Below the pieces are notes generated by a model, which was given only the letters and a program-made list of their open reading frames with translations, made no database searches and was not told where the DNA came from. A stretch of 59,600 bases of DNA, filler included, from Streblomastix strix (taxonomy: Eukaryota): the NCBI GenBank assembly GCA_008636045.1. It is 3 parts of 3 records of this genome, joined end to end, with 100 filler letters (N's around TTAATTAATTAA, not from the genome) between each part and the next. Parts side by side here need not be neighbours in the genome. Positions count along the whole stretch, not along the records: positions 1 to 19,809 come from SNRW01000485.1; positions 19,910 to 39,710 come from SNRW01000486.1; positions 39,811 to 59,600 come from SNRW01000487.1. One strand, 5' to 3'. Within the stretch, counting starts at the first letter, position 1; the number at the start of each line of letters is the position of its first letter. Shown piece after piece: positions 720 to 53,600 of the stretch. Made by a program: the position numbers and the translations under genes.

Positions 720-3700
720 ATGCAAGGAATACCATCATCATTTATTAACTTTGATAAAATACATGATAGTTTTACGACTAAGACTCCAATTCAATCTCAG
801 CAAGTTTGCACAACTCCGAACTTAACAAATAAGAAGAAGATGTCTTAATCAGAAAATGGGTACAACAAAGTTGTTGCAATTTTGGAAAATAGAACAAGAG
901 AAGTATCCTATTAACAACATTTTTGATTTTCAATCGATAAAATTTTTTTTGCGTTATTTAGATAGGCGTTGCATAATTCAATTCCGATTTCACGAAATTG
1001 GAAATCATTGAGTATTCAGACACGTAAACTTATGCTTATACTATTATGCACCTGTAACTGAGTAATCCTACTGAGGTTTGATTTCCATTTGTGCTTTTTT
1101 TGAAACTTATTTTATTATTTAATATTAGATTTTACTACCTTCAACAGCCGTATAACTCCCTCTTGCAATTTTATTAGGTAAAATGTTCTCTCATGCAACG
1201 CTTATACCAATGGCACGAAAATATTTTAATGATGTTGAAGGTACTCAACTACTCCAACAATATTCTATTGATGAAACATCTGCCATTAGATTATCAGCTT
1301 TGTCTTCGACTCATTATTTATCGCTTGGGTCGGTTGCTGCCTTGATGAAATACGCCGAAATACGATTATAGCATTATTTTTTCCCTAACTCGCTTTCCTT
1401 TTAGATTTGTGCACCGTCTTGCAGGTTACTTATGGATGCAACAACACTCTCTGCTCTTGAAATAGTTGAAAGTAACTTAGTGGAAGATTCCATTGAAATT
1501 AATCACTCTATGTAGCGATAAACTGGTGTAGCAAATACTCATTCAAAAGCATCATCTCTCTTTGCTTTTCTTAAACACACCCATACTTCTATGGGTACAA
1601 AACTTCTTAGATCAACATTAATTTAACCACTTGCAGGTATATTTTAATGATTTTCCGATTGTTTTTAATTATAGTTGATAATATTTTGTAATAAATTATT
1701 TTCTTTAAATTTTAGATATTAATGCAATTAACACTCGATTGGATGCCGTATCTGATCTTCTTTCAAGCTCGTTATGTACAAATTATTAATCATCTTCATC
1801 ATCTCCCGATTAAACTTCTCATTCACTTTCGTCTTAATTAAATAATGCTTCCAAACTTATAAATAACAGTGATAAACAATTTGCAAATTCATCTCTTTTA
1901 CCCGCACTTGTATAACTTCTAACTTGAACACCAGATATTGATCGTATTCTATCATATTATGTATACAAACCTCGATCAGAAAACATTTCTACATTCTAAC
2001 GAGGAATATTAACTATGGTAAAAATTATTGATATTGAAATTATTATTTTGTAATATTTTTATTATTTTATCATAAAAATATAAAACATATTTTAATTGAT
2101 ATTCATTATCTCTTTATTCAGATGAAACTAAAGAATGCGTTTGATCTCCTTCCCCGATTTTAGTTGATTCTTTCTCCTTTTAATGTTGAATCATCACCAC
2201 TTCTACATAGCATTAGATAGAATTTGATATCTCCATTTTTTGATGAATTCAATGATAAAATATCTAGGTTATTTTATTATATAATAATTATTTTACATTT
2301 TTTTATTAAAATATTTATATATTATTTTGAAAATTAGTATCAATCTTAGTTTTTTATTATTTATTAATTTATTATTTAGTCTATTTGCACCGAATACCCT
2401 CTAAACTCATGGAAGGTGGCCATCTATTTATGCTCTTTCTTCCATAATACGTCCTGGAGTCTCTTCTGTGGTTGATGTGTCACGACAAATAAATAAAGAG
2501 ACGATGGAGGACTTACGCGCACTTTTACTCTCATATTAAGCTATGTATGCTCTCACAACTCTTCGACTTCACTTTAGTGCAAGACGAGGTGCATTTCTTT
2601 CTGTAGGAAACGAATAGGCTCGAAATCTTCCAACAGTTTTTGGACAGGTTTGACAATTTTTTTTAAAATAATATAATATAATAATATTTAACAGAATAAT
2701 ATTCTTATTAATTTTTCATTTTTTTTATTATTATAAATTATTAATATTAGCGTTCGAAAATGGGATAGAAAAGAACAACTTGTATAACAGAGGAAGTTGC
2801 AAGTCTTAGTGAACGATGCAAAAAGAGCTTGAATGATATTATTTTCTACAGCTTTCAGTATTATTTTTTTTATTCTCATAATATATCAAAAAAATTTTTG
2901 TTTAATTTACACCCACTCTTATTTTTCATATATAATAATATATTATTAGATTAGTAAAGAAATTAGAGGATGATATTAGAGCACATCTTGGAGTTATCTT
3001 TCGTGTAGCAGAATCACTTGCTATGCTTGATATGTTAGTATCATTCGCAACAACAGCGTCTTCAAACAATAATTATGGTATTTTGTTAAATCCAAATAAA
3101 TTATTAGCATATTTTTTTTTTTACTTTTATATTCATAATTTTTCCAATCGTATAGTCCGACCCGAAATAACAATTGACGGCCCATTAGCAATAAAGAAGG
3201 GTAGGCATCCTTTGCGTGAAATTGTACTTGGAAGAGAATATGTTCCAACTGATGTTTTCATAGATGCTGAACGCAGTGTGTAAATCGTTACAGGAGCTAA
3301 CATGGTTAACGAATTAGAAATTATTAATGAATTTTGATATTTTAATTTTACTCCAATGTGATATTTTTTCTTTAGAGTGGAAAAACATCTTATCTTTCTC
3401 TAGTTGCTTGTATTTCAATTCTTGCGTAAATAGGTTCATTTGTCCCTGCTTCTTTTGCTTCTCTTCGCATTTTTGATAGAATTTATGCACATGTAGGTGA
3501 AAGAGGATGTGATCATACTCGTTGGAGTGGTGGAGCTTCATTAACTAGTCTTAAGTATATTATTCCAATAAAATAATATAATTTTTGATTTATTTTCATC
3601 TATTCACAATTTAATAGTCTTCATGGATCTAGTAATGTTGGTTGCAGTGCATTCACTAAAGAAATGGAAGAAACTTCATTTATTCTTGAAACACTTACAC

Positions 3701-6044
3701 CTCATTCTCTGATTCTAATGGATGAATTGGGTCGTGCAACTTGTGAAACAGAAGGTATTGGAATTGCTTGGGCTGTAGTAGAATCTTTTGCATAATTCAA
3801 GGGGAAAGTATAATTAAGAGAAAATAAAGAAGAGAAAGATACAGATGAATAAAATGAAAAGAAATAAGATATCAAAAGAATAATGAAATAATCATTAGAT
3901 TCTACTCCATCTCCATCAATATTCTCATTATCTCCATCTCTATCAACTCTTTAAAGCTGTATAACTCCATTATCTAATAATGATATTAATTTAAATAATA
4001 AATAATCCACAATATAATAAATTAGCCCAATTATCCTCTTCTCAACTCATTACTAGGAACTTACTTAAATAGAATCCCTTTTTCCAAATGTAGTCAATGT
4101 TCATTTAGTTACAAAATGAAGAAATTAATCTAACATAATTTAGAACAAACTTGATAGAAATAATGAAGAAATTAGAAAGGAAATTTCTAATGAAATTAGA
4201 GATAATGATATTGATAATAATGAAAAAAAGAAAGAAATTGAAGAATTAGACTCTTAAAATAAGATTATTTTCTCATACAAACTTGAATATGGCCCCGCAT
4301 AAGATTTTGATAGTGGAATTGATGTTTGTTTTATTTCATAATTTTAAATAATTCCAATTATATCAACTCATTTATCGTATTCAAACCATATTTATTAATA
4401 ATCTTATTAGATTGCTTCAATTGCTGGATTTCCACCATCAATAATTTAAAATGCTAGAGAAATAAAGAAGGATATGTTGGAAAAGAGTGCTTAAGTTTGC
4501 AATTTAATGTCTTAATTATTATTTTATTATATGCATTTTTAATATTATATTTTTCTTATATTTTATATTATTACAAATAGATGAAGTAATAATATATTAC
4601 AAAATAAAAAGAACTTGGCACGAAACTTCTTTTACTTAATTAATATGCAGCATATCCCGAAAAGGTAAAAGAATATTTAGAATTACTAAAGAAATAATAC
4701 TTAGTACCTCAAAATAATGAAATAATTGAATAAAATCATCAAATTTAATTTGATAGGAATGATGTTAATTAAAGATTAAGTATCTTAAAACCATAGAATA
4801 TTTAATAGAAGTAGGACAAAATATCAAACATAGATATTTTCATTAACGAAAACAAATAATAAGAAAAAAGTAAAAGAAAATTTTAATCAAATCAATTAAA
4901 TCCTAATTTTATAAATTCACAATCTTCAATATCTCTTCCATAATCATCTAGTTCATTTGCACTTCTTCCTGTTCCTATTATTAATAATTAGTAATCGCCA
5001 TCCTATGAAATATCAAAAATATTATCTCCTTTATCATCATCCAGTTCTAATTATTCAATTTCATCTTTTATTCTTCCAACTTCACCAGAATCACTATTTC
5101 ATCCTTATACACAATCTCACTCAACTCTTCTTTCTCCATCTTCAATTATTATTCAATAATAGTAATAATCTATTTAATAATAATAATAATCTATTTAATA
5201 ATAATAATAATAATTATCTATTTAATAGTAATAGTAATAAACGAATTCTTCAATATCATTAATATAAACTCCTCAAAAATAATAAATTACTAAATAATAA
5301 TAATAATATCTTTATTAATCCATTCAGAAATAATCTCCAAATTCAAAGTTTAATTCTGTCTAATTCAATGTTTCTACACTTCATGAATAACATATTAATT
5401 CTAAATAAAAATTAACAACGCCAATAAAAACCATTTCACCTCAAGATTAAGATGATTATAAACGGTTTGATTAACCAATTTTAACGTATTAATCACCATC
5501 AAAATCCATTCAGATACCCTAAAATCAAAATACATAAAATTAATCTTTTAAAGAAATAAATATAAAGAAAATAATCACTCCATTTTTATAAAAAGGAAGT
5601 TTATTGAACAAAACTACATAGCATGAGTAGAGAATTGATATATAAAATACATAAACTCCTTTATTTAATTTGATTGCTAATAATAGAAAAGAATAAAAAA
5701 AAGCAACAGCTAACTTTGCTCTTAATAAGGATGCAACTGAAGGAGGAAAATGTGCACTATCACCTTCATTAATTTCTCCAAATTTTGTTGCATAAGCTCC
5801 AGTGCTAAGTTAGAAGCAAAGAATAATTAAAGAAACTGGGTAGATATACAGTGAAGATGGACTACTGTTTTCATCTGAAGGTGATGCAATCTTAACAGTC
5901 ACACCATGTAAGTCAAATCTAAATAAATTTGCACGATTTAAAATTCGCGATTTAGAACTTGAAGATGATAAGCATGAATAAAATAACATAAACACACCTT
6001 CTACTTCTGAATCAATCATTAAGAACTTAATGAGAGAAGAATGA
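720..6044 (+). CDS. MSH4: MutS homolog 4 (meiotic crossover protein); ~12 GT-AG introns; two in-frame TGA; long S/Q/N-rich C-terminal extension
   Basis: Spliced code-6 translation gives IGVA..SDTQTYAYT, ARKYFNDVEG, GTKLLRSTLIQP, IKKGRHP, Walker A TGANM/SGKTSY, LAQIGSFVPA, SAFTKEMEE, LMDELGRAT..EGIGIAWAVVE and STHYQEL. ATG at 720, terminal TGA at 6042-6044, internal TGA at 1925 and 4117. Confidence 0.9.
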
Positions 6045-6551
6045 AATTGATACCACGTAATTTTTAGATAATGTTCATATTAATAAAATAATATTAATGA
6101 ATTAACTAATTTTAAATGTATAGCTATTGAAAAACATATTCCTGTTTATTGAAAAAAAATTATTGTCTTACCGCGAACTTTGTTTGCTAATTGTAATATC
6201 ACATTTTAAGAATAAATATGCATTCTTTTGAATATAAGAGGTATTTTTTCTTGCTAAACTCACTGCGAATCAAACACTTACAAAATCTAAAATTCATTTT
6301 CCAGCGCCCAAAAATCATTATTTTTTCTAATTAAATTCTCATTTGTCCTTTGTATTTATATTGCAATCATTCAAACTTACAAATGAATATTTAGACAAAA
6401 CTCGACAAGAAAAACTCACTTTTAAATATTTTCATCAAAATGCCAGTTTTTTGCATAATTCGATTGCCTTTATTTTATTTTTTATTAGCAGTTGCAAATT
6501 TCATATATTATTTAATATTTTTAAAATCAGGTTACATATTTATTATTATAG

Positions 6552-9500
6552 ATGAGCTAAACAAACATTGGGATATAAAATCTCGCATAGCTCAACGAAA
6601 TTATTGGCCAACGTGATGATATTAACCCTAAATAACAACTTAAAGCGTTTGCCTATTTGATGATATGTATATATTTAAAATTATTATTTTAGAACTCGTA
6701 TTTTGAAGAATACAAACGTGTAAGGTTCTTTCAAATTAAACAAACAAAATGAAAAATAATTCAATTTTACATTTCATCCATTTGAAAATGATGAAATTGA
6801 GCTGTCCAATGTAGGTATTGAAGATTCACTCCAGTCTGCACACAATCTAATTGCACTTTCAGCAGTAGAAGATGTTAATAATTCTGTTTGTTATGAATAT
6901 AGTTTTATTGTTGTTTATTAGATTTTGTTGTAACTTCTCTCTTATAAATAGATTATTTGATCATATATGGACTAAAATAACATAATTCAGAGCTCAAATT
7001 GGAGTATAATTAAAGATTAAATTTTCAATAGTATTGGGAAATAAGAGACGGAATAAATTTCACCAGAGTGGCCTATTTAAGATAATAAAGAAGAAACAGA
7101 ATATAGGATTAGGAAGGACAGTGTTGGTATATCAGATGATCATGGTGCATATAATCTTTGCATGAGTTTCTTTAAAGCTACAAAATAATACTGTCAATAA
7201 AGATTAGAGAAACAGGATTAGTTTTATAATAATAGAAACTTATTGAGAACAAAATAAGAAAATCTTCTCTCTGGAATTATTAAGAATAGTATATTGGAAT
7301 CTTCGCCAGATATAATTTAAAAAGAAATTAAACCTGATTTTCAAGATTTATTGGTTTATACCAGATAAATAACAGAAATTTTTTCTCAATCTTTTTTTTT
7401 AACTTTTTTTTATATTAGAGAACAGAAGACATGGTAAACACATTTTATTTATTGAATATGATGATTGGAATTGGGAAATAATATGTTAATTAGTATGCGT
7501 AATATAAAATTACTTGTTTATTATGTGTTATTTCTTTATCATTTCTAAAATTAAAGATCAATTGATGATTCTGGATCTTTTAAAAGACCATTTGATAATA
7601 CTGGATCAATAAAAAGATTAATTGATACTTCTGGATCTATAAATAAATTGCGATTTGATAATTATGAAGCCATTAAAAGACCAATTGGTAATACTGGATT
7701 AATTGTAGTTAAAGATGAATTAAAGCTTCCCTTCACAATATCTCCTCTTTCTCTTGCTGATGTATTAAACGCATATTAAGACCCATAATCTTCTTCTTCT
7801 TCTTAGACCAATATTTCATCATAAATTGATAATTAATCTGAATATATTCTAAGAACTTCTTTGCGTTTGTAACGTGGATTGATTGAAGGAGCCAAATAAT
7901 TCTATGAGGGATTGTTTGAGGATTAAGCTCGAAAAAAGATATTGGAAGATGAACATTCAAAAAGAATAGCATAAATTGGTTCAATGGATATTACATATGA
8001 ACAACCTCTATCTATTTCTGAATAGACAGATTAATTGTAAACAAATTTCAATAGAAAGAATTCATTTATTCGTGTTGCAATTGGATTATGTTTTTTAAAG
8101 CATAGTAATTGCTAATCGATTTTATCTTAAAGATCAGAACAAGAATCTGCCATTCTTGATTTAACTTTAACTTAAAAACATTTGGCAGGAATCACATAAC
8201 CTCAAACTCGTCAATAACAGACAAATAACTGGCCAATTGAGTTTGAGTCATTTACAAATGATGGATATCCACTGTGGCCGATAATATACTTTTGTATACG
8301 ATGTGGGAAGCTCCAAGATGCTTTAGCAATCCTAAAATACAATTCAATAGAAGAAGCTGAAGAATAATTACCTCTTTTATAAAAGGAAATTTAAGAGCTA
8401 AAAACAATTAGATAATCTGAGATAATTAAGGATCCAAGGCAAGATTCACAAAATAAAACTTCTTTATTGACAATTAATAAATCACCTCATTCAGATTAGC
8501 ATGCTTAGTTATGCATGAATATCATTAAGAATAAAATTATTAATAAAAATGATAATTATTTTTATAAGGAATTAGATCGAATGTTGAGTAATGATTCTAG
8601 GGATAATGAAATAGAAATTATGGAAGATAATGGAAAGATTAAAATCAATGAAGATAAAGAGAAAAAGAAATAAAATGGAAATTCAACAGAAGACAAGAAT
8701 AAAATAACTAATTTTATATCAGATTCAAATGATATTTATAAAATTGCTGTATTCTAAATATTAGGAAGAAAAATTGAAAAATTGATAAATAAATAACAGG
8801 ATCCATTCTATACATATTAAGATAATATATGGGCTTGCCTATTTTGTATAGATTCTGAAGAGGATATATTTAATGATATTAAGGAATAGAATAATTAGTA
8901 ATCGATTCATCTATCCTATCTCGTGAATATGTTCAGAACTCGTGGTAACGATTATTTTAATCTGGAAAGAAATAATCCTTGGCCTTATATTTAGATGCTC
9001 CTTGCAACATAACAATTTGAATTAGCTGTAATAACATTGATTGAAAATTCTCAAAAATCTTTCTTTTATCATTCTTTTGACTCATCTTAGCCCAATTTAC
9101 AAGATTTGTGCGGTGGGGTACATCTTATGATTGGTCTTAGTCAATATGGACTCTTAAATGAAGAACACACAAATTAACTTTCAAATTCTCATCAATAAAT
9201 TCTCAAATAAGAGTCAGAAGATCGGCAATAAACTACTTAAATAGATTAAATCGAAAATCTGAATATTAACTCTTAGAAATTAAAATCAGATTAATCAGTT
9301 TTTGATGATGAAGAATAGGAAGACAACAACGATTATTTTGATTCTTAAGATGATTTTGATTAAATGAGTTATAATGAGAATAGAAATGAACCTGAATAAG
9401 ACTTTTATTCCTTAAGATTCGCAGATCTTATTTCAAAGCACTTTGGTAATAATAATTCTCAGATATGTTATCAATTTAATCATAAGAACCCAAAACAACA

Positions 9501-10542
9501 ATCCATTATTTTCCTGAAACCATCAAACATCCTTTCATATTATGTCTCTAATGTATTTACCTTTAATAAACCCGAGAAGCAGGATCAATAAGAAGCTGCA
9601 ATTACTTATTGCACTCTTAGCTCTCCAAATCCAGGATATATTGATGAAGATCCTGCACTGATAAACATTGCCAAAATTATTTCTTCATCAAATAATAATA
9701 GCTTTTTTGAATAGCCCTAATTTCTTTCTTCTATATTAACTCCTGAAGCTGTTAGTAAAGTTAGATAGTTTTGTGCTAATGAATTCTCTAAAGAAAAAAA
9801 TCAAGCTAAAGAAATTAATATATTACTATAAAATCCTGATCCTAATGATTCAGTTGCATTTGATCGTTGCAATTAATTCTTCGAGACATATCTTTTATTT
9901 TAACCACAGTATGAACCTTAAAGAAGTGATGTTATCTAAATGCTTTAAAAATATGTAGATGATTTCATCTTGAAACAAAAACATACAGATTATAGGATCA
10001 GTTTATAACACAATCCAATATAATATAAAATGAAATTGCTAGTGGATATTGGAAATGCCTCTTCCAGTGCTGCTGAAGCTGTGAGAATGAGCCAAGAGCT
10101 TAGAAGTGGTGCAGATATTAACAATGATGTGTACAATAACTGGTTATCAGTGATTTAAAAAATGGATGAAATTGATATCATTTCATTATTAAAAGAAATT
10201 AAATCAAGTAAATCACCTTAATATCCTCCTGAATGTATCACAAAAAATATATCAGGCATTGTTAAGATATATGTCGAAGCGTTAAATTTTCTATTCAGGG
10301 CTATAAGTATTAGGAAGTACAAGATGAATGATGAATAAGGTATAATTCAACCAATTAATGGTAGCATTTAGCAGATGGATCTGCAATTAGACGAAATTCG
10401 TAATAGGCTGAAAGATCTTCTTCTTCGCTTCAAAGAAACAAAAGGTAAGAACGTTGAAAATTATGAATAGGTACTATAGCAATTGATTTATATTTAAACA
10501 TCCACACAACCTAACTAAGTTTAGAAACGTTAATAAAAATGA
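6552..10542 (+). CDS. NUP93: Nucleoporin Nup93/Nic96; 4 introns
   Basis: Nic96-family motifs GYPLWPIIYFCIRCG, DIYKIAVFQILGR, YQDNIW, YIQMLLATQQFELAV and VHLMIGLSQYGLL. Terminal TGA at 10540-10542. In-frame TGA at 6958-6960 if the acceptor at 6951 is used. Confidence 0.85.
7558..7700 (+). repeat. Degenerate ~30-bp (10-aa) coding tandem repeat in Nup93
   Basis: Translation IDDSGSFKRP-FDNTGSIKRL-IDTSGSINKLR-FDNYEAIKRP-IGNTG. Confidence 0.7.
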
Positions 10543-10616
10543 GTAATTTATTTATACAATTTAATATAATGGCTCCAAAACGGACGTTATTACGATTATG
10601 TTAACATGTGTTTCTT

Positions 10617-19600: not shown

Positions 19601-19809
19601 ATGTGTAAAAAGAAAATAAAAAAATAAGTTTAAATTTAAGAATAAAATAAATATAAATAAGATTAGTTATATTAAAGAATTATTATCAATAGTAGTTAAT
19701 CCAACAAGTTCAGCAATTGTAAGCGCTTTTAAATCATTGTCATTTAAGGTATTATGGCTAATATTATTGTTAGTGGATAATTAATTAATATTGTTTATTC
19801 CAAATATCT
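10617..19809 (-). CDS. Giant (>3,000 aa, 5'-truncated) PPP-family Ser/Thr protein phosphatase
   Basis: Motifs GDIHG (~13070-13087), GDYIDRG, RGNHD, MHGG, LWGDP, IR/AHE and VFSSDSY. One code-6 frame runs from the gap down to 11409 with no TGA seen. GT-AG intron at 11305-11408, stop TGA at 10617-10619. Confidence 0.85.
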
Positions 19810-19909: not shown

Positions 19910-20813
19910 GATGGCTCAGGGAGATTGCGAGGGTTAAAACCCAAAATTGGATAACCTAATTAATTCAATAATAATCCCCAATGTCTAGACGCACAAAAAA
20001 TATGAATCCTTGCCAAGCATCTGAGATACATGAAGTCGATCAAAGACCAGCGCAAGGGAATAACGAAAATCCACTTAATTTGAGAGAAAGAACGGATGCT
20101 CCTGTTTAATCAAGACATTCTCGTAGGTAGAACAATTAGTATGCCCCAATATTCAATATTATTTACATCTTTCAACTATATATGTTGCTCATACCCTAAA
20201 TCCATCTGATCCAAAAAGAGTTTAACATTAAATCGAGCAAAATCGCAATGATTCTGCTGCTGTTGGAGCAGATGATGGAAACCATCACTCTACTCATTCT
20301 AATAGAGATTGCATCAAATAAACGAGATCAAGCCCTTCAAACAATAATTAAATTGGAGATTTCTTTAATGAAATAGATTTGGGTTTTTTAACTTCAAATG
20401 CTGAACAATAAGTTACAAGAAGCGCTCAAAACTCAATAATGCTGAATTCAAAGAGTTCAAATTCATCAAAAGTGAGTGGTTCATTCATTGAATTAACTTC
20501 AGAAGAATCAAGATGTCCCAATTCATCAAGTTCAACACCAACTTCAAATGGAAATCAGTAATCCGACTTTTCAAAAACTGCAACTGTTCCACCAATAAAA
20601 ATTACTTCTTACTAAGTTTAATCTTCTATTCCAAAATCATCTGATCAATTAAATAGTCCAAAATCATCTGATCTTGTAGCATAAAATGATCCAATGAAAG
20701 TTTTATATAAGGATCATTGGCTAAGAAGAATCTATTTAATAAAGAAAATCAGAACAGAAGGACGTATTCCGCTTTCCATTATCATTAAACATATATTGGT
20801 GAATAGAATATGA
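19910..20813 (+). CDS. Unknown Ser-rich protein, possibly 5'-partial; one probable intron (~20139-20218)
   Basis: Code-6 frame ending ...DHWLRRIYLIKKIRTEGRIPLSIIIKHILVNRI-TGA (20811-20813). Confidence 0.55.
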
Positions 20814-27123: not shown

Positions 27124-30100
27124 TCAATCTTCTTTAAAGCCATTTTCAACGATTTCCTCAGCAGTCTTCATTGATTTAGAAGCTTTATATGTCTCCATTC
27201 TTGCTGCAAGGTCATAGAAGTCTTTCACTTCTTTCTGAGAGGATGTCGGGTTATTAAGATATCCCAAATAAGATGGTGGAACAATTAGAATGTCGAGATT
27301 AGGTTACGATTCAAGGAAATAACGCTTTGCGTTTTTCAACATAAATGCACCAAGTTTTTTATCTATTGTAAGAATATGTCCTGTTATCCAATTCTTGCAA
27401 AATTCAGCTACTTCATTCGTTGACAAAATATTCTTAACAAGGGTTGTATCAAACTTGACAAGCTTGCGAAGTAGGCTTATATGAGCCTTAAGATGAATGC
27501 CATGTTCAGGATCTGGATATTTGAGATGGGTCATTACTGCTTCCTCATCGTTGAAGTGAGTGCATGCATATTGAACTAGGATATCACAAGTCTCTTATAT
27601 TTACTCTTTCTACTCCCGATTTGCAACTTGACGTACAATCTTACCCAATAAATCTACAAGTGCGCGATGACAATAATCTATTCTACCAGCATGAGTATAT
27701 AAAGATTCTTACCACTTGACTGCATCGGCTACATTCATATCTGCTAAGGCTGCAATACGTCTTGTAGTTATTGCAGTAGTTTGCATCACCCCAGGTACTG
27801 GTAATAAACATAGAAATGATACTCCCAAAGTAGCTAAAATAGATCCCATATAAAGAAGCAAGATTAGCATTTAATATAAACTTCCATATGAATTGAGTTC
27901 GTCCTATCTAGCTTATCCAACTTGAATAAGACCATCCTGCAAATCATTAATACAAATACTTTATATGAATAAATAATTAATCCCCTTTGGCGATAAGAGA
28001 TCATAATCTTCTTAGAGTAAGTTAGTAACCATTGTATAAAATATTACTTATAATTCTCCCAACCCGTGAAATGGTGGAATGTTCCCATAAATGTGTCCTT
28101 CTGTGCATTGAGACTAGTTTATCATAAGACATTCAGTGCTCTCAGTCATTATACGATCTATTGTTTTATACTTCCCTTGTGTGCGTCTTATACTTATGCT
28201 ATCAATCTCACTATCTCCTGTTGGCTATGTGGCTGATGATCCAATCTCTGCTGTTCGGGATAAAAGAACAAATTATTGAAGCAGACCTTCAATGACAACA
28301 TGCAAAGATCTTCTGTCGTGCATAAATGATGAATTAACAAAAACAGGAGAACTAAATTACTCTTCATATGAAACAGGGTTATCCCATTTATATATGGAAT
28401 TAGTAACATACATTGTTGTGAAAGATGCTATTTGTGACATGATTATCTTTCTGTGGCCGCCGTGTGAGAGTTATGATTGACAAGCTTATGTGTCATCAAT
28501 AAAAAGAATTGATGTTAGAAATGAAGCAATCATGGAAATGAGTATAACGGCTGTGCCAAATAACAGTTGGCTTGTAATTTTATTTGGGAGAATTCCCTAC
28601 AATTTCTTCAATTTGTCCTCAATTTCATGAGCTTTTTACTGTTTCTACTCTTCTTTCTCATCTTCCCATTCTTGTTTCATCACAGTGAGCATCTCATGTT
28701 CCAAGTCTTCCTTAGCAACTTCTTCAGTCATTCCCATACCTTCCATTCCATATGGAAAATTCATCATTTGATATTATTACTACAAATCAAATTATTCTTA
28801 TTCTTGTAGTGCTTGTATTACATCTGTAGCACCCAATTCTTCAAGTATATTATAAAGCTATTCATCTTCAAGCATGTTGATTACACCTGTCTCTATATTT
28901 ATTAAAGCTGGTCCTTCTGCCGTTTGTACAATAAGACCTTCCTGTCCATCTTCATCTTCAAACTATTTGAGAACCTGAGCTTCAACACCTTCAATATTAA
29001 TCATCGTCCCTGGTGCATATTATCCATCTTCAAAGTCTTCTTATTAATTCTGATTATAAAATCCTTCCTCTTCTCCTTCATTTATATCCATCTCATAACC
29101 TTGATTATTATAGTTCATAAAATTTCCATTAAAATTTTATGGCATAAATCCATCTTAGTTCATTAATTAATTATTGAAATTCTGATAATTATTCTCATTC
29201 CCAAACATCATCATATTTTATTCATTAAATTAATCATTATTAAATAATGCCTGTTAATCCAGTTATCCAATTTATTCAATTTCATTCTCATTAAATATTT
29301 CTTAATTATCTGTAGTTAGATCATCAATTTCAGCTGAATTTTGAGATAAGCGCAATGATGGGGTTTCGCTCTTTTGTTCAGATACCCTGGAATATATCTA
29401 TGAATGTATAATGGGCAAGGTTGATTTCTTATCAATTTAATCATTTTAAGATTATTGAATAGAAGTGTCTTATTGTTATTACTATTATGTTTGATTTGGT
29501 AAATCTTATGAATGTTTTGGTTCAGCCAATTCATCCTTAAGATCAGTAATGCTATCTCCAAATAAATTATCATTGGCCTCATCAACGTCTTTTTCCTTCA
29601 ATTCTTTTTCTTTCTTCTCTTTTTCTTCTTTTTCCATCTTTTCTTTCTTAGCCAATAATTCTTTCTCTTTTTCTTTCCTTTCTTTTTCTTTTTCTTTTAT
29701 TTCTTTTTCTTTGTCCATTAATTCTTCCTTTGGCATTAATCTATCTATCATTCTCTGCAAGTCTTCATGTGGAAGCAAACACAACACACGCATCTTGGCC
29801 TTTCTCTTCTGTGTGAGACTCCTTTAAGCATATAATACAGGAAGGAGGAGGAGAAGTGCAAGTGATACTGCACTAATAGACAGAGTTATTAAAAGTACTG
29901 CATTTGTTGTCCTTGATTTCTTGATTATATTCTTGATGTAGACTGTTGAAGCTTTCTTCATTTCCTCAGTAACAAGAAGAGGAGTATTCATTAATTGAAT
30001 TGCTGTAATGGTGTGAAATGATCGTGTAAGTGTACTGAGATGTGGAATTACATTATCATTCAACTTTCTAAAATAGTGAACATTACGTCTATTTTGCTAT

Positions 30101-33100
30101 GTGTTATTGTTTGATGAATGCTAATTATTTGAATTTTCCCTATCTCTTCCAATAATTGGTATTTAATTTATATTATTAAATATATTTGAATTATTTCTTT
30201 CATTGTTCTCATCTGGATCTAGAATAGTTTTTTATTTCACATTCATCTATTTATTCATCGCATTTGAATCCTTATTATAATTATCATTCTTCGTTCCAAT
30301 ACTTTCAATAAATTCAGCCAAATCATCTGGATAAACAAGAGATTCAGGAGTCTGAGATTATTCAACTGATATATCTTGCATCCATTCAAGTATATCATAG
30401 AAGTTCATACTTGAATGAGAAATAAGGACAATATCATTGTTTTCGTCTACAATTGGAATAGGGAACTTATGATATTAATCTTTCCATACACCCAAGGAAT
30501 ATGAATTTGAGATTACTTGTCTGAGTTATTAGTTGATTTCAAGCACATCTGAATAAATCATATCTTATATCTAAAGTAATTATTATTCTTCATCATCAGT
30601 AAGCCATGATAAAATTAGATCGCTCTATTCTGCATAATCTACTCCATTATTAATGTTATTCTTATCATTATATTTATTTTATCTTTTCTAAGTTCTATCA
30701 TTGAATCTTCTCTTTCCAGATTATTTTATCAACAAATTATCTTCGGTATATTCCTAATCTTCATTTCTTTATTCATCATCATTATTATTTGAACTAATAG
30801 AATATTTTGAAAGAGGTGGATCACGATAATGCAATTCAATGATCCTCTGAGCCATGTGAGCAAGACGATTCAACCTGAAGCTGAAATCTTAGAATGATTT
30901 AATGTTCAGAGAGAGCTTAGATTATTATCCGAGTAGTGTCTGTGAATATGCATATGCAAAGATCAGTGATGCAATCATAAGAAGAATGGCTATAAGCATC
31001 ACAGGTTTCAAATAAGGAATATCTTTGACTGCTTTCTTCTCAGATAGAACCTGATCCTTAAGAATCTGATTACTGCCTCCTCCTGATTGTGCAATAGCTG
31101 CAGCTGCTGCTTCTGCTTATTCCTTTTCAATCTTTGCGTCAATTTCTGCTTAACTTTCTTGATGCTTCTCATCTTTTTGTGTAATTGAGTCACCATTATC
31201 AGCTTTTTCATCTTCATTTTCATCTTTTCCTTTATCATTATCTTTCTCCTTATCTTTATCTTTTTCTTTTTTCTTATTTTTTCCTTTTTTCTTTGATTTC
31301 TTCTTCTTATCTGTATCTTTAATATTCTTATCAATATCAATATCTTTATTCTTCTTTTTTGTTTAATCATCATTATCTTTATCTTTTTCTTTATCTTTAT
31401 CTTTTTCTTTATCTTTTTCCTTTTCTTTTTCCTTTTCTTTTTCCTTATCTTTATCCTTTTCCTTATCTTTTTCCTTTTCTTTATCTTTCTTCTATTATTT
31501 CTTTTCTTCCTTCTTCTCTCCATCTTCTTCATCCTTCTCATCTTCTTCCCTCTTCTTCTTAGCCAATCTCCAATCATCGTCTTCCTCTTCTTTTCCATTG
31601 TCAATGATATCTGCTTCTCTTATTAACAATTTGGCCACATCATCTTCTCTGCTAATATCCTTCAATAAGGATGCAAACAGACGAAGAATGCGAGGGTTGT
31701 CCTGATATTGAGCAAGAAGATGGAGAAGTAGCTCATGTGCATGTGCTTCAAAATCAACAACCTGCAATGAATGTATAAGTGAATGTAAAAATAAGTGAAA
31801 AATAAAAAGGATATAAACATATATATGAAGAAATTATATTTTTATCTTCAATACCAGACAAGCATGACTCATCACCAAATTGACATCAACATTCCTTTTA
31901 TTTAGTAGCATCCACATTTGAATCAAATGTTGTTTGCACATTTCATATTATTTCTCAGCTTGTTGAATCTACAAGTTCATCATATACTAAGCAGTGTTCT
32001 AATTACCACCCAATCCAACTCCCATCATTTAATCATTCCCTTATCCAGTGTCTGATTAATTGTTATCATCATTTGTATTTGCGTTCTGAACTTCTGATCC
32101 TGATTTCTCAATTGTTTCAGTAGAATCTTTTTCTTTATTAGTTTCTTTATTGAGATTATCATTAATTTCAGATATTGGAGATTTTGGCCTGTCACTTTTC
32201 TATCCTTTATTAGCAACAGAATCTTTTGTTTTATTCACTTTATTTGCTTCATCATTCTTTTTCTAGACTTATTTATCATCCTTAAGTTCATCTTTGTTAT
32301 CATTTGTTTATTTAATTTATTATGCTTAAGCAGTAGATATATTATTCAACCCCTGAATGATCTGCATTGTTTCAATCTCCTTCTCAATGCAGAATGCAAT
32401 CCATCTATCATGGAGAGCAGGATAGAGCTATTGCGCATGTTACAACTAAAGTGCCATCTTGACTATATTACGTCTGTATTCAAGAAGGAATAGTGCATAT
32501 GATATGCGAATTGAAGGTGAACTTGAGTGAGGCGGTTTCTGAAGGACACGTGTGAAGATGTGATCAATGAACTAAACAAGTTGATTCTCGTGTTTGAGTT
32601 ACTTAATTTGCAGAAAACGCATCGATGGTTCAACTGAACTCTAATTACTGAAACCTTTCATTATTAATCTCACTGAATGTTGGAGGGATTCACTTGAACT
32701 TGGATTACAAATGAATGTGTATGGTGATGTTTTATGTTTCTTCTTTTATTCTGATGGTTTGACTGATATTTATTCTTTGAAGTCTTATTTACTTGTCATA
32801 TAAAGAAGTGGAGGTGAAGTTGGAGGAATTATATTCATTTTACTTTACCCAAAAGCTTTTCCCAATGTACTGACTTATTTTGAATGAGTCTGAATCTTTT
32901 GTGGTTATTGACTAGTTAAATCATTCAAGAATTAAAATGTAAGCTTTGGCTTTAATAATTATTATTATGGTTATTGCTAATTATTATTTATTCCATCAGA
33001 AACATCCTTTTCTTACCCCTATTAATTCTTCTTCAACAGTGGAGTAGCAATTAATGTTTGTTATTAACCACTGTTCTTTAATATCTTTTTGCCTATTCCA

Positions 33101-35658
33101 CGTGAAAGAGCTGAATTAAGTTATAATTTTTGACCTTATTTATCTTCAGAAACTTTATTCACTTTATTCTTATTATCATTCAAATCTTTTTCATTCTCTT
33201 ATTCTTACTGTTTCTATTAGTCTTATAATGTTTTCTCTCTCAAATCAATTACATCAGCACGTTTCTTCATTAATGCAGCATAGATGGGAGATATTTCATT
33301 TACTGGCTTTGGAGTCAATTTGTAAATTCGTTCAGGAGGTTCAACCTTCAAACGGAATCCAATTATAACTGGCTTAGGAGATCTGTGAAAGAAAGAAAAC
33401 CAACTTTTATTATTTGTTTCATTTGAACCATCTACTGGTTAAATATTTTATTAATTCTTCATCATTCCATCTTTTTTCTCTTATCTGTTAAGCCCAGCAT
33501 TCACAGCAGATGAATCAGGACCTTCTTTATCAGCTCCATTCCAAACTGCATCATAACTCTTCATTTGTCTAAGATTCAATAATCTCAACTTCTTAACATA
33601 TTATTCATCCCTCTCTTTCTCAATGTCATCCATCAACTTCTGCCTCTCAGCCATTTGTTACTCATTCAATTTGATGTTCAGCTGAAATTGGTGTTATTAA
33701 TACTTCTGGTGCTGCTGTACACGTTTGGGTACTGATGATATATGCTGAATACTTGTAAGATCAACCTAAAAATCTGGATTAATTGACTTTCTGGGGCTTT
33801 TCTGTCCTTCTAAATTATCAGAGAGAGGTTGAATTATTAAAGGCTAATTAACAAATCTTCTTGAGCTTTCTTCTCCTGGTGACATATTCTACCTTTATGA
33901 TGAATAATCTTCATTTGGCTTGTTTTGTGGTTGAATATTGTTAAATTAAGGTAAATTAGTTTGATTTTTCTTTCGAAATAAGGCATTAGCTTCAAAAGTT
34001 GGAGAGAATGAAACTCTTAATTTATTTTTATTTAAATTTGTTGAAGATATATTTTAAACGGGTTACATACTATTATTATCATTAATTGGTTACTAATCTT
34101 AATCTTTATTTGCTATTTCCTTTTTCTTAGCTTTTTCTTCTTCCTCTCTTTTCTTCAACATCCTCTTCTTCTTCTTCAAATATTCTCTGTTCTTCTTTGT
34201 CCCATAATTGTAAAACATATATTGAAATGCTGGATTCTTCTTTTTCACCTTCATTGTCATAAACTTCTGAGGCTATTTTTAATTCTGCTGTTAATTATTC
34301 ATGTCTTCGTCACTACTCGAGTCACTGTATGCATCACTGTCATTGTTATTGTTATTGTCATATGATTATGTTTCTACATCTTTATCTTAATTTTGAGTTT
34401 TCTTCTTCTTCTTCTTATTTTTCTTATTTAATAATTATTTGTCGTTCTCACGGCAGTATTCCTCGATATTCCCTGAAACGCTGTAGATTGGTTCAACAAT
34501 CCATCTTATTTTGCACACCTTTTCAGTTATTTTAGCAGTTATTAACATAAAAATAATTGGTAATACTATAGTTATCAGCCATGCAAATGATGCAGAAAGA
34601 AACAACTTTGCAGACATTGGGGCCACTTAACCATCTGATCCTCCAGCCAATCATTCAAAGACTGGTAAAAGAAGACCAATAATTCCACCACTACTGACAG
34701 CTCCATATGAACCAGATAATATAACACTTCCTTTAACTGAATATGTTGGAGGGAATATTGAAGTTGATATTGAGATGGATGCAAATACAATAATATGAAT
34801 TATACAAATAACAGTTGGTTGTGTAGTTATGAAGATAGATGATATTATGGTGTAAATTGAGATAACTGTAAATACCAATGAATAATAGGTTCCTGTACGG
34901 CAGGCAAATAATAATTTTCTTTTCATCTTAACGTCGCATATAAACAGTTTGTAAAGTACTGTGTATGGCAATAGTATAATGATGTATAGAATTAGAAATA
35001 GTATTCCCATCACTTCCATAAACTTATTACTGCAGTAAGGAACCAATTCTATGTTATGCTTTAATGTACAATTCATAGGCAATGAAAAGAGAACTGTGAG
35101 TGGAGTTGTAATAATCGATGTTGAGATGAAGGCAAAGAAATCAGTTGTCTATAATAATTCTGGACGGAGTATAAGATCTTTCTTCTGCATATAATACATA
35201 ACAGCTGCTAATATTGGAGGTACAATAGACAGAAGACCAAAAATAACAGCAAAAAGTATAACAACAATTGAACTGTGTGGTGCAATTGATGGATCAATGT
35301 AAAGACTATTAATGGACAAAATATTAATTAACAAACAATAAAACATAAAAAAATTAATTATTAATTATGATCATACCTGAGCGCTCTAAGAAATTGAGAA
35401 AATCCCAAACTTTTAACACCTGGCCGTTTCAGGATTATTACCATGAGTTGGAGAACTTAAAGAAACAAAGAAGCTTTTTATACATAATTTCTTCTCTCTC
35501 CAGCAGCCTAATTAAAAAAATAAACAATGAAACGCTAAGAAAATATTAAAAATATTACCTATTTCAACGGATAGGCATAGGAAAAAAATCTGATTAATAC
35601 AATAAAATAGAAAATATTTTTATTAATAAAAAAAATTGATGAAACTATACTCTTTCAT
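27124..35658 (-). CDS. Large multi-pass membrane protein with a TmcB/TmcC-like helical region and C-terminal hemerythrin domain; in-frame TGA at 34651
   Basis: Multiple hydrophobic helices at 34500-35300 and near 30960, 29850, 28520 and 27820. Central motif QHLIQMWMLL..NVD..EAHAHELLLHLLAQYQDNPRILRLFASLLKDI. Terminal TGA at 27124-27126. The start (MKEFFSYAYP) is uncertain. Confidence 0.8.
27340..27714 (-). other. Hemerythrin (bacteriohemerythrin-type) di-iron domain
   Basis: WQESLYTHAGRIDYCHRALV...THFNDEEAVM..LKYP..EHGIHLKAH...NWITGHILTID matches the H / HxxxE / HxxxH / HxxxxD ligand pattern. Confidence 0.9.
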
Positions 35659-38809: not shown

Positions 38810-39553
38810 AAAAAATAATTAATAACTATTATGAATAGGAAATATAATGATAGAATTAAGAATAATATAGATATTAAGGTTTATTAATATGTTGTTGTTG
38901 GAGTAGTACTTAATTTGCAACTATAGGTTAGTGTTTCATAATAGTATTAACAAAAATAATATACTGGGACAAAATTAAAGTAGTGCAAACAGAAAATAAT
39001 TGATACCTGTTTGTTTGTGGAGCTAAATCAGAAAAATATTTATTGGCAAATCTTAGTCCTCTCTTTCTGTCAAAACATTTTCGGCTGTACAAGGTTTATT
39101 TTCGTTACAATAGCTCGTATATATCATTTATACTGATAAATACATTCATCTAGCTATCTACAGCGAGAAGAAATTTCTATTTTTGTAAACGGCTTTTTGC
39201 AATATCCACAGTTTATTATTCTATAAAACTAGCTTCAGACATTTGTATATTACAATGTCAATATCACCAGTATTTAGTGGCAAATACTTCTAATTTTTAA
39301 TCTCTTGAAAACAGCATTAAACTTAATTTTAACTAAATTTCATTTTTTGTATGCCACAAGAAAAATTTGATTATTTAAATTATTTAAATTATCATCACTT
39401 TATAAATTTAGCCAATATAACTATATATTTTAATCAAATTTAAACAAGATACGAATAATAGATATTTTTCAAAATATTCTTATGATTAAACCAATAAAAT
39501 AATAATCATTCTTGAATTTCACTGATTATTTTAGAATTCATAATAAATATTTT
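38810..39553 (-). repeat. ~750-bp interspersed repeat, copy B
   Basis: Reverse complement matches 23543-24290 with scattered substitutions and small indels. Confidence 0.9.
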
Positions 39554-39710: not shown

Positions 39711-39810
39711 NNNNNNNNNNNNNNNNNNNNNNNNNNNNNNNNNNNNNNNNNNNNTTAATTAATTAANNNNNNNNNNNNNNNNNNNNNNNNNNNNNNNNNN
39801 NNNNNNNNNN
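39711..39810. other. Artificial segment linker (N44-TTAATTAATTAA-N44)
   Basis: Identical structure to 19810-19909. Confidence 0.97.
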
Positions 39811-44093: not shown

Positions 44094-44329
44094 CACCTTA
44101 AATTATATTCAACATAATATTTATAAGGTGTAAGTTCTAAATAAATAAAAATAAATATTTCAAAAATTATCTCAAAAAGTTTGATATGTTAAATATTGTT
44201 ATATTTTTAATGACCTAAAAAAGTGAAATTGGATGAACGTGAATGTATAAATAGTTTTTTAAATAAAAACTAATCCTAACCCTTATTCATTAAATAACCA
44301 TTCAGCAACTTCTTCCTCTATAATTATCA

Positions 44330-45653
44330 ATTCCATGGTTTCCCCACTCAAGGTGACGTGATCCTTCAACTCCCTTTATAGAAGAAACATTGCAACTTTT
44401 AAAGTGCGTTATTGTAAATGTTGAGTCATGCGCATATGTGAATGCCTATTTATAAGAAATTTAATAATAAAATGAAGAATGTAAAATATTGATGTAAAGG
44501 ATATTATATATGCAAACAAAGAATTTGATCTTAGTAGTAGCACGCTTTTCATAATCCTGTTAATAAATAAAACACAAAATGTTTTTTTTATTTATAAAAT
44601 GAATAAAAATTTTATATTATATTAATAATATGTATTTATATATTTGCAAACAGGACTTAGCATGTTCAATATGAGCTACTTTATCTATTAAGGTATCCAA
44701 GATGGTGATTCTTCATGATCATTTCTCTTAATTCTCTCAATCATTGCTTAATAAACTATGTTTATTTATTAAGGGGTAATGCATTAACAATATATCAGCA
44801 ATATTTATAATAATTAAAAGATTTATTAAACAACTTCGTTCCAGCAGTCGTTGCATAATTTTCGTTTTATATATCCTTTGCAAATATAAAATCACCTTTA
44901 ATTCAAAATATATAATAAATCATTTAAAAATAAATATATTAAATGAAGAAGTATACTCAATCTTACAGATCCATCAGCCATCATAAAGATATTCTCAGGT
45001 TTAATGTCTCTGAAATTATTGTTGATTCAATAATAAATATGAATAAAATAAAGGATAAAATAATACAGAATTAAATATCATTAATAAACCGATGAATAAC
45101 ACATTTAGAATGGAGATTATCAAGTGCTCTGGCCATCTAACCAAAAATAGCCCATACACACTATATATATAATAATAAACTATTTTATGAAAATAAAAAA
45201 AGATTAAACCATCACTCTTTCTTCTTCTGGCAAATTCTAAATATCAAAAATAACTTTTCTCAAATCTCCTTTTTCACAATATTCCATAATCAAGCATAAT
45301 TCTACATTGTGTTGGAATGAACATAATAGACGTATCTTAAAATATATAATAATATAATAACAATAATAATATATATTAAAAATGATTGTTAGAACTATGA
45401 ATGGCGAAGCCAAGCGTCTCATTTGTTCAACTTCAGCATCAGCTCTTGTTTTGTCTTTTTATCTTAGGTAGTCAACCTTCTTCATCACATATAATACTCC
45501 ATTTGATTTCAATTTAACAATATATGTTTTTTCCAAATGCACCACCAGAAAGTTGATCAACAATGTCGTCTAAAAAGAAGGCAGAAGAAGGTAAAAATAT
45601 TTTAATCCTTTGTGTAAATTCAATTTTTACATATAATATTCATATTGATCCAT
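44330..45653 (-). pseudogene. NEK-like protein kinase pseudogene
   Basis: GGAFGK, YVMKKV, LIMEYCEKGDL and IH/RDIKPENIF are present. There is an extra A in the run after GGAFG (45527-45532), DFG reads DFI (~44885), and the APE/DxWSLG subdomains are not found. Confidence 0.8.
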
Positions 45654-46315
45654 TGCAAATGAAGTGTATTTGTTGCTCTGAAAGTAAAAAAAAAAGAATT
45701 GTAAATTTAAGCGATAAAAATATGTTTGAATAAAAATTAAGTCTTTTATGCATCTAGATCATAATTTTATGAATTTGGTCAGAAAATTAAACTATAGATG
45801 ACTAAAATAGCGTTTTTCAAGTGTAAAAACTGGAATTTATTGATATGTTTGAGGGATATTAAGATTTTTGAAGTAAAATGTTAATTCTTCGCTTACAGTT
45901 GCGCATATTGCATATGCATAATATTTTTGATTTAATGAGTACTTTTTACAATAATAATGCAAATTTCAATTTTAAATCAAGCTCTAACAATAATTTGGAA
46001 ATTCTACTCTACCCGCAGCGACTGAATCCTAAATACTCTATTTTTTACAATTATTACTTGACTATGTTAAATAAAAAACCACAATATTTATCTTTATTAC
46101 TCACCCAAACGCAAAACGATCGCTGATAATATTATATCTAAAAATCAGGTTTAACTCCAATACTAGATTGTTGATATCATTAAAATTATAATAATTAAGA
46201 TTTTTTAGGAATATATGAATTAATTTTAACATAATATTATTAAATAATAATTGATTTATCTTTACAAAAACTTTATCTTTGATTGCTATTTTTTTCATGT
46301 ATATTAATTAGCAAT

Positions 46316-50633: not shown

Positions 50634-53600
50634 ATGTCAGATCAAAATCATAAATCACATAATAAGTAGCGAGATTCAAGTCCATTACGAGAATTTGAAG
50701 ATAATCAATCACATCATAAAGAAAGGCGTAGATCAAAATAACCGAATAAAGAAGATTTAGGATATGCTTTGCCTAAGAAAAGGCATGATTCCAGTCCACA
50801 AAAATAAGACTGAAGAAGTTAAAGTCCACCAAAAGAAAAAAGTCGTAATTCCAGCCCACGAAAAGAAGACAAGCATAGTCATGAATATAATAGTGATAAA
50901 CGTGAGAGTAGATATGAGAAGTACTACAAGAGCCACAGTCATAATCATAATAATGAAGATAAAAGGGAACATAGACATGAAAGAAGAAGAGATAAAGAAA
51001 AAAGTCATGAGAGAAAGAAAGAATAAAAAGAATAAGATAAAAAGAATGACAATTTGGAGGATAAATAGAAAGATGAAGAAATAAATGATGAAATTAGAGA
51101 TAATAATGAAGGTATTAAAAGTACAAATAAAAAAGAAAATGAAAATAGTAAAGAAACAATAAAAAATAAAAATTTAGAAACAAACGAAATAAACAACGAA
51201 AAATAACCTCTAGTTTCATAATACTGTGACCACATACTAAAATAGTTTAACCAAGAATAAACATTAAATTAAGACCTTCGATAGTCTCTGAATAATAAAA
51301 TCCCATAATGTCCAGCAGATGTAGAGTAACTAAAGAAGATTGTCAAACATGCAGCTGAATAAGAAGGTGAATAAATAAATGGAGCTGCTTTTGAGTATCA
51401 CAGACATTATCATATCCATCATCACTGTGCTAAATAAATGCAGATTGATACTGTGAAGGTAGAATCTAATGCATAAAAGAATAATTTATAGGATTTCTTG
51501 GGATCTCTGGCAGATAGTTCATTTAATAATTAATATAATGCATAATAATAATAACATTAATAATTAAACCAGATACAGTAACAATATAAACCTCCGTTTA
51601 ATTAATAATAATAGCAATCATAGTCCTAATCATTAATTGAATAATCAATATCATAATAATAAGGGACAATGGAATCTTCAATATAATCTCCAATCATTAC
51701 TAGAGTATAGGAGATGTAAGAATTGGGTGGAAGTGAATAAAGGATATAATCAGTTAATAATGATTACTTGAAATTAAACTAAAACTTAAATTAGCATTAG
51801 AATACAAATAATAATTAAATGAATCGATAAAATGTTTAAATGAAGTAAATTAACCAATAATAAGAAACTGAATAACAAAGAGTTGCTCGAATCTAAGCAG
51901 AGATTGAACAAGAAAAATAGAAAATCCAATAAATTATTATTGAAATGGAATAAAAGAGATTAATGCAGAAGTAATATGAGTTAATGAAGGAGAAGGAAAG
52001 AATGAATTAAATTGATAATATTAAGGAATAGAGAAATGAAAAAGAAGAAGAGATATAGAATGAAATTACTAAGTAAAATGAAATGCATATTTATAGGTCA
52101 TAAAATAGAGAATAGATAAATCCAATTACTTCTGTTTCGCCTCCAAATAGAGAAATAATCAGTTCAAATACAAATACAAATACAAATACATATTAAATAA
52201 ATTAATATCCTTTAAATAAGGCAAATGCAATATAATAATAATAATAATATCAGTACTAACAACAATAACTAAATTTATATCCATATCTAACAACATAAGA
52301 ACAAACATATTAAGATAGACAATAATATAAGAAATAACTTTCACCATTTGAATAGATGAGATTGGCATAATCACATCTTATGGACATGAAGAGGATATAA
52401 GATTCTATACTCTAATCTAAGAATAGTATTACTATTAATAATAATAATTCTAATTAAAGAGTATTTACAGAAATTGATAGTAGACAAAAAAGTAAATAAA
52501 ATTAACCTTCATCACCAAATAAATCAAGAATTTAACACAACTAGAAACTAAATACAAATAAAAATGAATTTAAATAATCATTATCTCGTTAATTAACAAA
52601 TAATAACAATAATATTCCATAAACTCAATTAGTTCAGTCTTATTCATTCAATGGTAATAATAATAACAATAATCATCTAAACACATCCATTTCATTTGTG
52701 TATGAAGGAAATAATGATGATTAATAATAGTAATATATTCAGAGAAGCAATAACTATGGATTAAATTTATTAAGCACTTCATAATATCATAATGATTCAT
52801 ATAATAAAAGAAACTAATAAGATAAAAGTAAAAATCAGATATTTCAGTTTGATGATTCATTTCACTCATCTTCTTCATCACCAAAGAAATATCAATAATA
52901 TAATAATAATTAATCATCAAATTCTTCTCTTTCTTCATCATCTAATCTTCCACATCCAATATAATCTTCTTCTTCTTCTTCATCATCTCAGAATACATCT
53001 TTAATTTCATAATCTCAAATTCCACCATCATATATATCATCATAAGCATATTCACTCATTCACTAATAACATGTCATATTGCATGATTAACTGCTTAAAT
53101 ATGCAGAAGATTAAAAGTAGATGTAAGATAAGATTGTTTAATTGTAGAATATGATAGATGAAAAAGGACTGAAATAAAATGAAACAATATAGTAGATTAA
53201 AAAAGATGAAAATTCTAAATTAGAAAGTAATTCTCTTATACATAATTATAAAGATAATTCAGATCAATTGGGAGTTAAGAGTACTCAATTAATAAAACAA
53301 TAAGAGGATGATCATCGATTTGCTGAATCAACTCCTTCTAATAGAATTAAAGATATTAATTTATAGTAATATGTTTATTCTTCGTCGCATTCAAATAATA
53401 ATAAATAAAATAATAATGAGGATAATGACGAAAATAAACAATTAGAATAAAATAAAGATAAAGATGAATATAACAGCAGTCATAAGAGTGCATTTAAATT
53501 ATACAAATTCTCAAATGATGAACAAACACCAGAATCTAAGATTGAATCTGGAAGACTAACATCCCTTATAGAAATTGGATCATTGAGTTTGTCTAGAGAT

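Follow-up and report, generated by a model that had tools for sequence, protein, structure and literature searches.

Streblomastix strix reads TAA and TAG as glutamine (PMC13002328; PMC1501061) and uses TGA to end its genes. The question raised by the locus described here is whether TGA is at the same time read as sense inside genes. The locus is a stretch of 59,600 nucleotides (the window) from assembly GCA_008636045.1, in which three contig pieces (1-19809, 19910-39710 and 39811-59600) are joined by N linkers. It is AT-rich, with a GC content of 23-33%. Judged from its sequence, the source is the oxymonad S. strix or a very close relative; the database protein P0025 is identical to part of the window and its mate in a 90% cluster is a protein named Streblomastix strix at NCBI. 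The sequencing runs that contain this DNA are termite gut metagenomes.

Five in-frame TGA codons were observed inside four genes of the window, and they are real genomic codons in intact frames of an oxymonad in which TAA and TAG encode glutamine. The reading that we favour, with a confidence somewhat above even, is an incipient ambiguous code in which UGA would stop translation near 3' ends and be read through internally, at an early stage and not as a settled code.

Internal and terminal TGA codons

An earlier note on this DNA had reported five internal TGA codons, and under NCBI table 6 all five were found at the positions and in the peptide contexts that it gave. The genes and codons concerned are as follows.

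720..6044, plus strand: MSH4-like MutS gene, 13 GT-AG exons, 1,445 codons, long low-complexity tail, TGA end
1925..1927, plus strand: internal TGA 1, MSH4 codon 339, 1,106 codons ahead of the stop
4117..4119, plus strand: internal TGA 2, MSH4 codon 862, 583 codons ahead of the stop
6552..10542, plus strand: Nup93/Nic96 gene, 5 GT-AG exons, 1,251 codons, TGA end
6958..6960, plus strand: internal TGA 3, Nup93 codon 99, 6 nt past a splice acceptor
27124..35658, minus strand: gene for a hemerythrin-type large membrane protein (oxymonad family), ~2,750 codons, approximate 5' end, TGA end
34651..34653, minus strand: internal TGA 4, membrane protein, 2,477 codons ahead of the stop
50634..55616, plus strand: gene for a disordered Q/S/N-rich protein, 1,660 codons, without a Trp codon, TGA end
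50811..50813, plus strand: internal TGA 5, disordered protein codon 60, 1,600 codons ahead of the stop

Gene models were built with GT-AG introns under table 6, where open frames reach 2,849 codons; the membrane protein was modelled from its two large exons. The ten modelled genes or gene parts comprise 13,372 codons (785 TAA, 207 TAG, 60 TGG, 66 CGA, 276 AGA and five internal TGA), and the glutamine value of the 992 in-frame TAA and TAG codons was itself taken from the literature. Four small, intron-rich genes (WD40, syntaxin-like, RING and kinase) were read in three frames and left out of the codon count, the RING gene being excluded for its uncertain 5' end. The 16 modelled introns are 46-112 nt long with a T fraction of 0.48-0.59.

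The genes are otherwise intact, as the earlier note had stated. The four TGA-bearing genes span 7,055 codons, in which the five TGA are accompanied by no frameshift, and none was observed across all 13,372 modelled codons. Internal TGA occurs once per 2,700 codons and lies 583-2,477 codons ahead of the true TGA stop. TGA was also found at all ten modelled 3' ends (nine listed genes and PTB), in agreement with the claim that every gene ends in this codon, and no TAA or TAG end was found. At the level of DNA, the same codon stands at gene ends and in frame inside genes. The base that follows it fails to separate the two settings, which upholds a further point of the earlier note: A, A, T, T and A follow the internal codons, and A, G, A, T, T, C, A, T and A follow nine terminal ones. 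A read-through hairpin was sought downstream of the five sites and none was found (z -1.5 to +1.2), and an Rfam scan at E up to 1, SECIS included, gave no match. Where genes converge, their stops are separated by 74 and 126 nt, a spacing that suggests short 3' untranslated regions. Two apparent additional TGA codons, at ~2830 in MSH4 and across the Nup93 junction near 7433, disappeared under the correct frames and splice sites.

Homology in a single frame was found to cross the TGA at three sites (1925, 4117 and 34651). The MSH4-like product matches Pfam MutS_III and MutS_V and aligns with MutS at a BLASTP E value of 1e-45; we take it to belong to the MSH4 subfamily from its motifs. The MutS_III match spans 1925, although weakly (E 0.006), and the BLASTP alignment runs through both 1925 and 4117. 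The homologue search returned 24 MutS proteins, of which the named ones are bacterial, and a homologue search with MSH4 exon 3 returned none, so neither a eukaryotic MSH4 nor the N-terminus of Nup93 could be aligned. In PDB, the segments surrounding 1925 and 6958 yielded chance matches only. The Nup93 product matches Pfam Nic96 (E 2e-20) and Nup93 in PDB, and its homology was confirmed by these searches only downstream of TGA 3.

Named homologues of the membrane protein come from Monocercomonoides exilis, Blattamonas nauphoetae and S. strix. Eight of nine homologues align across 34651, while the ninth stops short of the site. Two database proteins, P0025 (Logan-derived) and P0041 (S. strix at NCBI), terminate just ahead of 34651, and the 90% cluster of P0025 has two members only, both of which end at TGA 4. 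In the disordered protein, for which a Pfam search found no family, 208 open codons lie between TGA 5 and the next ATG (P ~0.015 in non-coding DNA).

Candidate residues at the internal TGA codons

The ln likelihoods of the residue at the internal codons, calculated from gene composition and BLOSUM62 columns, were highest for Glu (+0.7), Gln (+0.6) and Ser (+0.5), followed by Lys (+0.1), Arg (-1.2), Gly (-1.5), Leu (-1.5), Cys (-3.2) and Trp (-5.7). In the 23 aligned MutS proteins, the column at 1925 holds ten Pro, six Gly, three Gln, two Asn, one His and one Ser, and the column at 4117, which adjoins an insertion, holds 22 Glu and one Lys. The eight homologues that cross 34651 have Phe, Leu, Asp, Leu, Lys, Ile, Thr and Thr. 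Tryptophan is therefore found in none of the aligned residues (0/23, 0/23 and 0/8), although two of the eight homologues have Trp one column past 34651; one of the sites, which number five only, lies in a gene of 1,660 codons that lacks Trp altogether. On these sequences tryptophan appears disfavoured. Arginine was found in none of the aligned columns and in one of 17 in a motif count. A leave-gene-out context model, given five true sites, picks Arg in 43%, Gln in 61% and Trp in 1% of cases and cannot discriminate between residues.

Yeast inserts Trp, Cys or Arg at UGA (PMC4150775). Among these three residues arginine would be the best fit here, weakly supported. The earlier note had held that the contexts fit Arg at least as well as Trp; the preference for Arg over Trp is borne out, weakly, by the likelihoods, but Gln, Ser, Glu and Lys fit as well or better. 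If the sites are young, the columns would reflect the ancestral codon, for which TAA is the commonest source (33%), and not the inserted residue.

Evidence from reads and strains

Reads were compared at sites 1925, 4117 and 6958; site 34651 is backed indirectly by the two database proteins that end just ahead of it. The DNA of the window may itself stem from run X1, which is hence not independent and whose library type is not on record. One X1 contig of 4,832 nt at depth 17.6 spans both MSH4 sites and another at depth 25.6 spans the Nup93 site. X1 is identical to the window over 1922-1975 and over 6455-7100. The X1 contig over 4117 departs from the window at two of 3,389 letters; among the differences listed, one lies at 3510 and none at 4117. 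Runs X3 and X4 hardly cover the window.

Run X2 comes from another study and holds a strain ~97-99% alike together with a more distant relative ~80% alike. Site 1925 is spanned by one X2 contig (depth 2.1), with exactly one other letter in 1922-1975. This letter is absent from the differences listed, all of which lie at least 31 letters from a contig end, and we therefore place it in 1922-1935.

Two further observations concern the MSH4 gene in these runs. X2 contigs that match 2527-2861 and ~3259-3274 carry a second MSH4 sequence, ~80% identical and with the same intron position, where an in-frame TAA occupies the place of a TAG of the window; it could belong to another oxymonad with TAR as Gln or to a paralogue. 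The MutS C-terminal tail (4581-6044; 487 codons) is of low complexity and contains a triplet repeat whose length varies among the window and the two runs, with gaps of 21 and 27 letters, both multiples of three.

Tolerated TGA codons or decaying genes

A dispersed inverted repeat of ~720 bp, 93% identical, is present at 23545-24262 and 38841-39552 on one contig piece. Each copy lies between genes and the repeat is possibly a non-autonomous mobile element; a 23-nt part of it had no exact match in three public collections.

The two repeat copies differ by 48 substitutions and by two frameshift-length indels (4 and 10 nt). With this spectrum as the weight, TGA results from 1.8% of coding substitutions, and decay predicts 1.2-2.4 frameshifts per TGA, or 6-12 beside five TGA. 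That this ratio rests on only two indels, in non-coding-like DNA, is a point against the argument. The finding of none beside the five codons has a P of 0.002-0.02. New TGA codons thus seem to be tolerated where frameshifts are not, as read-through predicts. Synonymy was counted from the 40 differences listed. In the MutS core downstream of TGA 1, the differences from X1 and from the near-identical X2 strain are synonymous in four of four codons (2203, 2208, 3510 and 4296), and the distant X2 relative shows 14 synonymous and 7 non-synonymous codons among the differences listed.

Several observations weigh against reading internal UGA as sense. The main one, against a stable species-wide sense codon, would be the X2 difference near TGA 1, since its place in 1922-1935 favours, by 3-6 to 1, a TGA 1 private to the lineage of the window. 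All three alignable sites are variable columns that indicate no single amino acid. Internal TGA is ~200 times rarer than TAA and TAG, and amounts to 0.5% of TAA+TAG here versus 8.4% in Uronychia setigera; a neutral codon for Arg or Gln would be much commoner, so that TGA is presumably still costly or the change recent. The codons are not significantly remote from the true stops (nearest 583 codons; P 0.09-0.11). At the end of the MutS core the changes at 4487 and 4489 are non-synonymous, as are four of five in the tail. Five TGA codons are about what neutral supply would have provided since the window and X2 split (4.6-9.6), and relaxed selection would give the same number. TGA 3 could be spliced out, as considered below. 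Finally, UPF1 has been reported in S. strix (PMC1501061), so TGA-bearing mRNAs would need to escape nonsense-mediated decay.

The main rival explanation, which was also raised in the earlier note and which we judge unlikely but still of substance, is that the codons are recent nonsense alleles in an organism where UGA is always a stop, held under relaxed selection in a clonal lineage or accompanied by an intact allele or copy that was not assembled. Amplified single-cell DNA can lose an allele, which counts in favour of this explanation, and X2 may be without TGA 1. The match between the TGA count and neutral supply is also as expected from it, and the contexts resemble a mix of source codons (expected TAA 33%, AGA+CGA 24%, TCA 12%, GGA 11% and TGG 9%). 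A kinase gene in the same window looks decayed, with two apparent frameshifts and no in-frame TGA seen, for which a homopolymer assembly error is possible. Against this explanation stands the lack of any frameshift: 6-12 would be expected alongside five TGA, and the 13,372 modelled codons show none. Furthermore, four of the ten modelled genes would be dead, Nup93 included, and Nup93 is an essential nucleoporin in model eukaryotes. X1 forms one 4.8-kb contig with no second allele among the differences listed, the P0025 cluster has just two members that both end at TGA 4, and past TGA 1 the differences listed in the core of MutS are synonymous.

UGA as an internal sense codon is the best-supported reading and in our estimate a little more probable than its negation. 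The open frames and the lack of frameshifts favour it, and the lack of a consistent residue in the aligned columns does not.

Splicing, editing, artefact and selenocysteine

Another possibility named in the earlier note is that the stops are removed in RNA, by U-to-C or A-to-I editing or by splicing, and this we consider improbable. Introns were scored with matrices derived from the 16 modelled introns, and only frame-keeping introns were considered. No plausible frame-keeping intron that would remove the TGA was found at 1925, 34651 or 50811; the best score at 1925 was -1.1 versus 2.2-15.7 for the 16 true introns, and at 50811 the AT content was at most 0.67. At 4117 a 156-nt GT-AG candidate scores within the range of true introns, but it is coding-like, with a T fraction of 0.26 versus 0.48-0.59 and 0.24 bits per base versus at most 0.04 in the 16 introns. 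Four of the five sites therefore cannot plausibly be spliced out, and the splicing alternative is weakened accordingly. TGA 3 is the site at which it keeps some force: a usable acceptor at 6990 would remove this codon together with 13 others, with a score of 3.9 versus 7.8 for the near acceptor, and the 39 nt between the two Nup93 acceptors are ambiguous. The spacing within Nup93 would favour the near acceptor. A-to-I editing would yield Trp, the worst-fitting residue, and metamonads are not known to edit their nuclear mRNA in such ways.

An origin of the TGA codons in amplification or assembly errors (C>T damage), of which the earlier note had named C>T amplification artefacts, now seems highly improbable. 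X1 possibly has the same DNA source and the read comparison covers three of the five sites, which leaves some room for it. However, the codons at the compared sites are carried by contigs of depth 17.6 and 25.6, and damage would need to strike 3.8% of CGA/TGG codons. No T/A excess was observed relative to X2 (2 versus 5 of 12 rows; 16 versus 19 among 66 listed), and at 3510 the X1 contig departs from the window, with which it nevertheless shares the MSH4 TGA.

The MutS, Nup93 and membrane-protein families are, to our knowledge, not known selenoproteins. That the internal UGA are selenocysteine (or cysteine) codons is the least credible explanation of all: S. strix has an entry for a selenocysteine-specific elongation factor (PMC10703272, row 179 of supplementary file 5), but Cys is absent from every aligned column and has a low likelihood, and SECIS was among the models without an Rfam match.

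Comparison with known codes

The Streblomastix case appears most like the code of seven spirotrich ciliates, including Stylonychia lemnae and Uronychia setigera, in which TAA and TAG are read as Gln and TGA as Arg (Q/Q/R), with TGA also at gene ends (PMC10089648); this is an analogy and membership is not established. The two share TAA and TAG as Gln and TGA in both terminal and internal positions, and of Trp, Cys and Arg the best fit here is Arg. They differ in that S. strix is a metamonad without a macronucleus, that internal TGA is ~17 times rarer relative to TAA+TAG, and that Arg is only a candidate here. The spirotrich code also provides a precedent for nuclear UGA as Arg, which the earlier note had called highly unusual. 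A reading of UGA as Gln may be new, and was not met in the literature examined.

Context-dependent codes have been described for Condylostoma magnum and Parduczia (PMC4967479) and for Amoebophrya sp. ex Karlodinium (PMC6394959), and in Condylostoma and Parduczia UGA encodes Trp (PMC10089648). As in these two ciliates, UAR is Gln, one codon appears to serve as sense and stop, local context is uninformative and 3' regions are apparently short. In contrast, UGA is common there and read as Trp, with ribosome profiling in Condylostoma, whereas the internal codons described here are rare, fit Trp worst and are known from DNA; UGA at Trp positions, as in Condylostoma, was not observed. The ciliates Zosterodasys and Diophrys, with low-frequency read-through of TGA (PMC10089648), resemble our case in having few internal TGA that are hard to tell from noise. 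Here the sites, only five in number, were checked singly against splice models and frameshifts.

The window agrees with the known S. strix code (NCBI table 6; PMC13002328, PMC1501061) in TAA and TAG as Gln, TGA as stop and short T-rich GT-AG introns. It differs in its internal TGA codons, and the 2026 inference of the code (PMC13002328) was drawn from tubulins only. No report of internal UGA in any oxymonad was found in the accessible text of PMC13002328, PMC1501061, PMC10703272 (with supplements), PMC10120064, PMC5304391, PMC9161772 and PMC11687900, a scope outside which lie the 2019 S. strix genome paper and Keeling and Leander 2003.

Proposed mechanism

Left with UGA as its sole stop, the release factor may be inefficient at a distance from the 3' end, although close to the poly(A) tail UGA would likely still stop translation. 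Internally a near-cognate tRNA could win, most likely an Arg tRNA; Gln or a mixture would be possible and Trp least favoured. Under such incomplete read-through, new TGA codons arising from TAA, AGA, TCA, GGA and CGA at weakly constrained sites would be tolerated and would turn over fast. More tentatively, and with distinctly less than even confidence, S. strix could be the first metamonad without a dedicated stop codon, with UGA efficiently decoded internally as Arg, convergently with the spirotrich ciliates, or as Gln, and acting as stop near poly(A).

Other features of the window

A very large gene on the minus strand (10617-19809; ~2,960 codons modelled) encodes a calcineurin-like phosphoesterase domain (Pfam E 4e-15) that is interrupted by long low-complexity insertions, and it contains no internal TGA. 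The 5' part of an apparent second gene, presumably of phosphatase type from its motif, lies on the plus strand at 19910-20813 and runs into a TGA at 20811. No further exon was found ahead of the converging WD40 gene, which could reflect truncation or an unannotated splice. At 56928-59147 on the minus strand, a one-exon gene encodes an acidic protein of 739 codons without Trp, at whose C-terminus lies a microtubule-binding domain of the CAMSAP CKK type (Pfam E 4e-10).

The decayed-looking protein kinase gene is intron-rich and lies at ~44290-45655 on the minus strand, where two exons match Pfam Pkinase weakly. Its DFG motif is altered, and two shifts are apparent: +1 in an A run just past the glycine-rich loop, and -1 near 44530. 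P0034, an S. strix paralogue of the membrane protein at NCBI, ends at residue 749 in the middle of the region shared by the family, which could be due to an overlooked intron, to the end of a contig or to a further internal TGA. No tRNA is present in the window. Exact look-ups of proteins of the window gave no match, and no related DNA was found in metagenome, prokaryote genome and viral contigs.

Implications

The internal TGA codons are a real feature and probably represent an early ambiguous code in a new eukaryotic lineage, as judged from five sites at the level of DNA. Codes with an ambiguous stop/sense codon have been described in ciliates, Blastocrithidia and Amoebophrya, for the most part in mature form. 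With the public genome data of S. strix and its new single-cell transcriptomes (PMC13002328), the question can be tested now. Should the codons prove to be nonsense alleles, an unusual nonsense load without frameshifts would still want explanation.

If the ambiguous code is true, the last stop codon of S. strix, rare inside genes and apparently turning over between strains, would represent the intermediate step predicted by theories of code change, and would allow a test of whether position-dependent termination precedes codon capture. The S. strix proteome, which has been used to argue for the absence of genes in mitochondrion-free eukaryotes, would then hold genes split at TGA. If decoding is efficient as well, roughly a third or more of the long genes would be split in public annotations.

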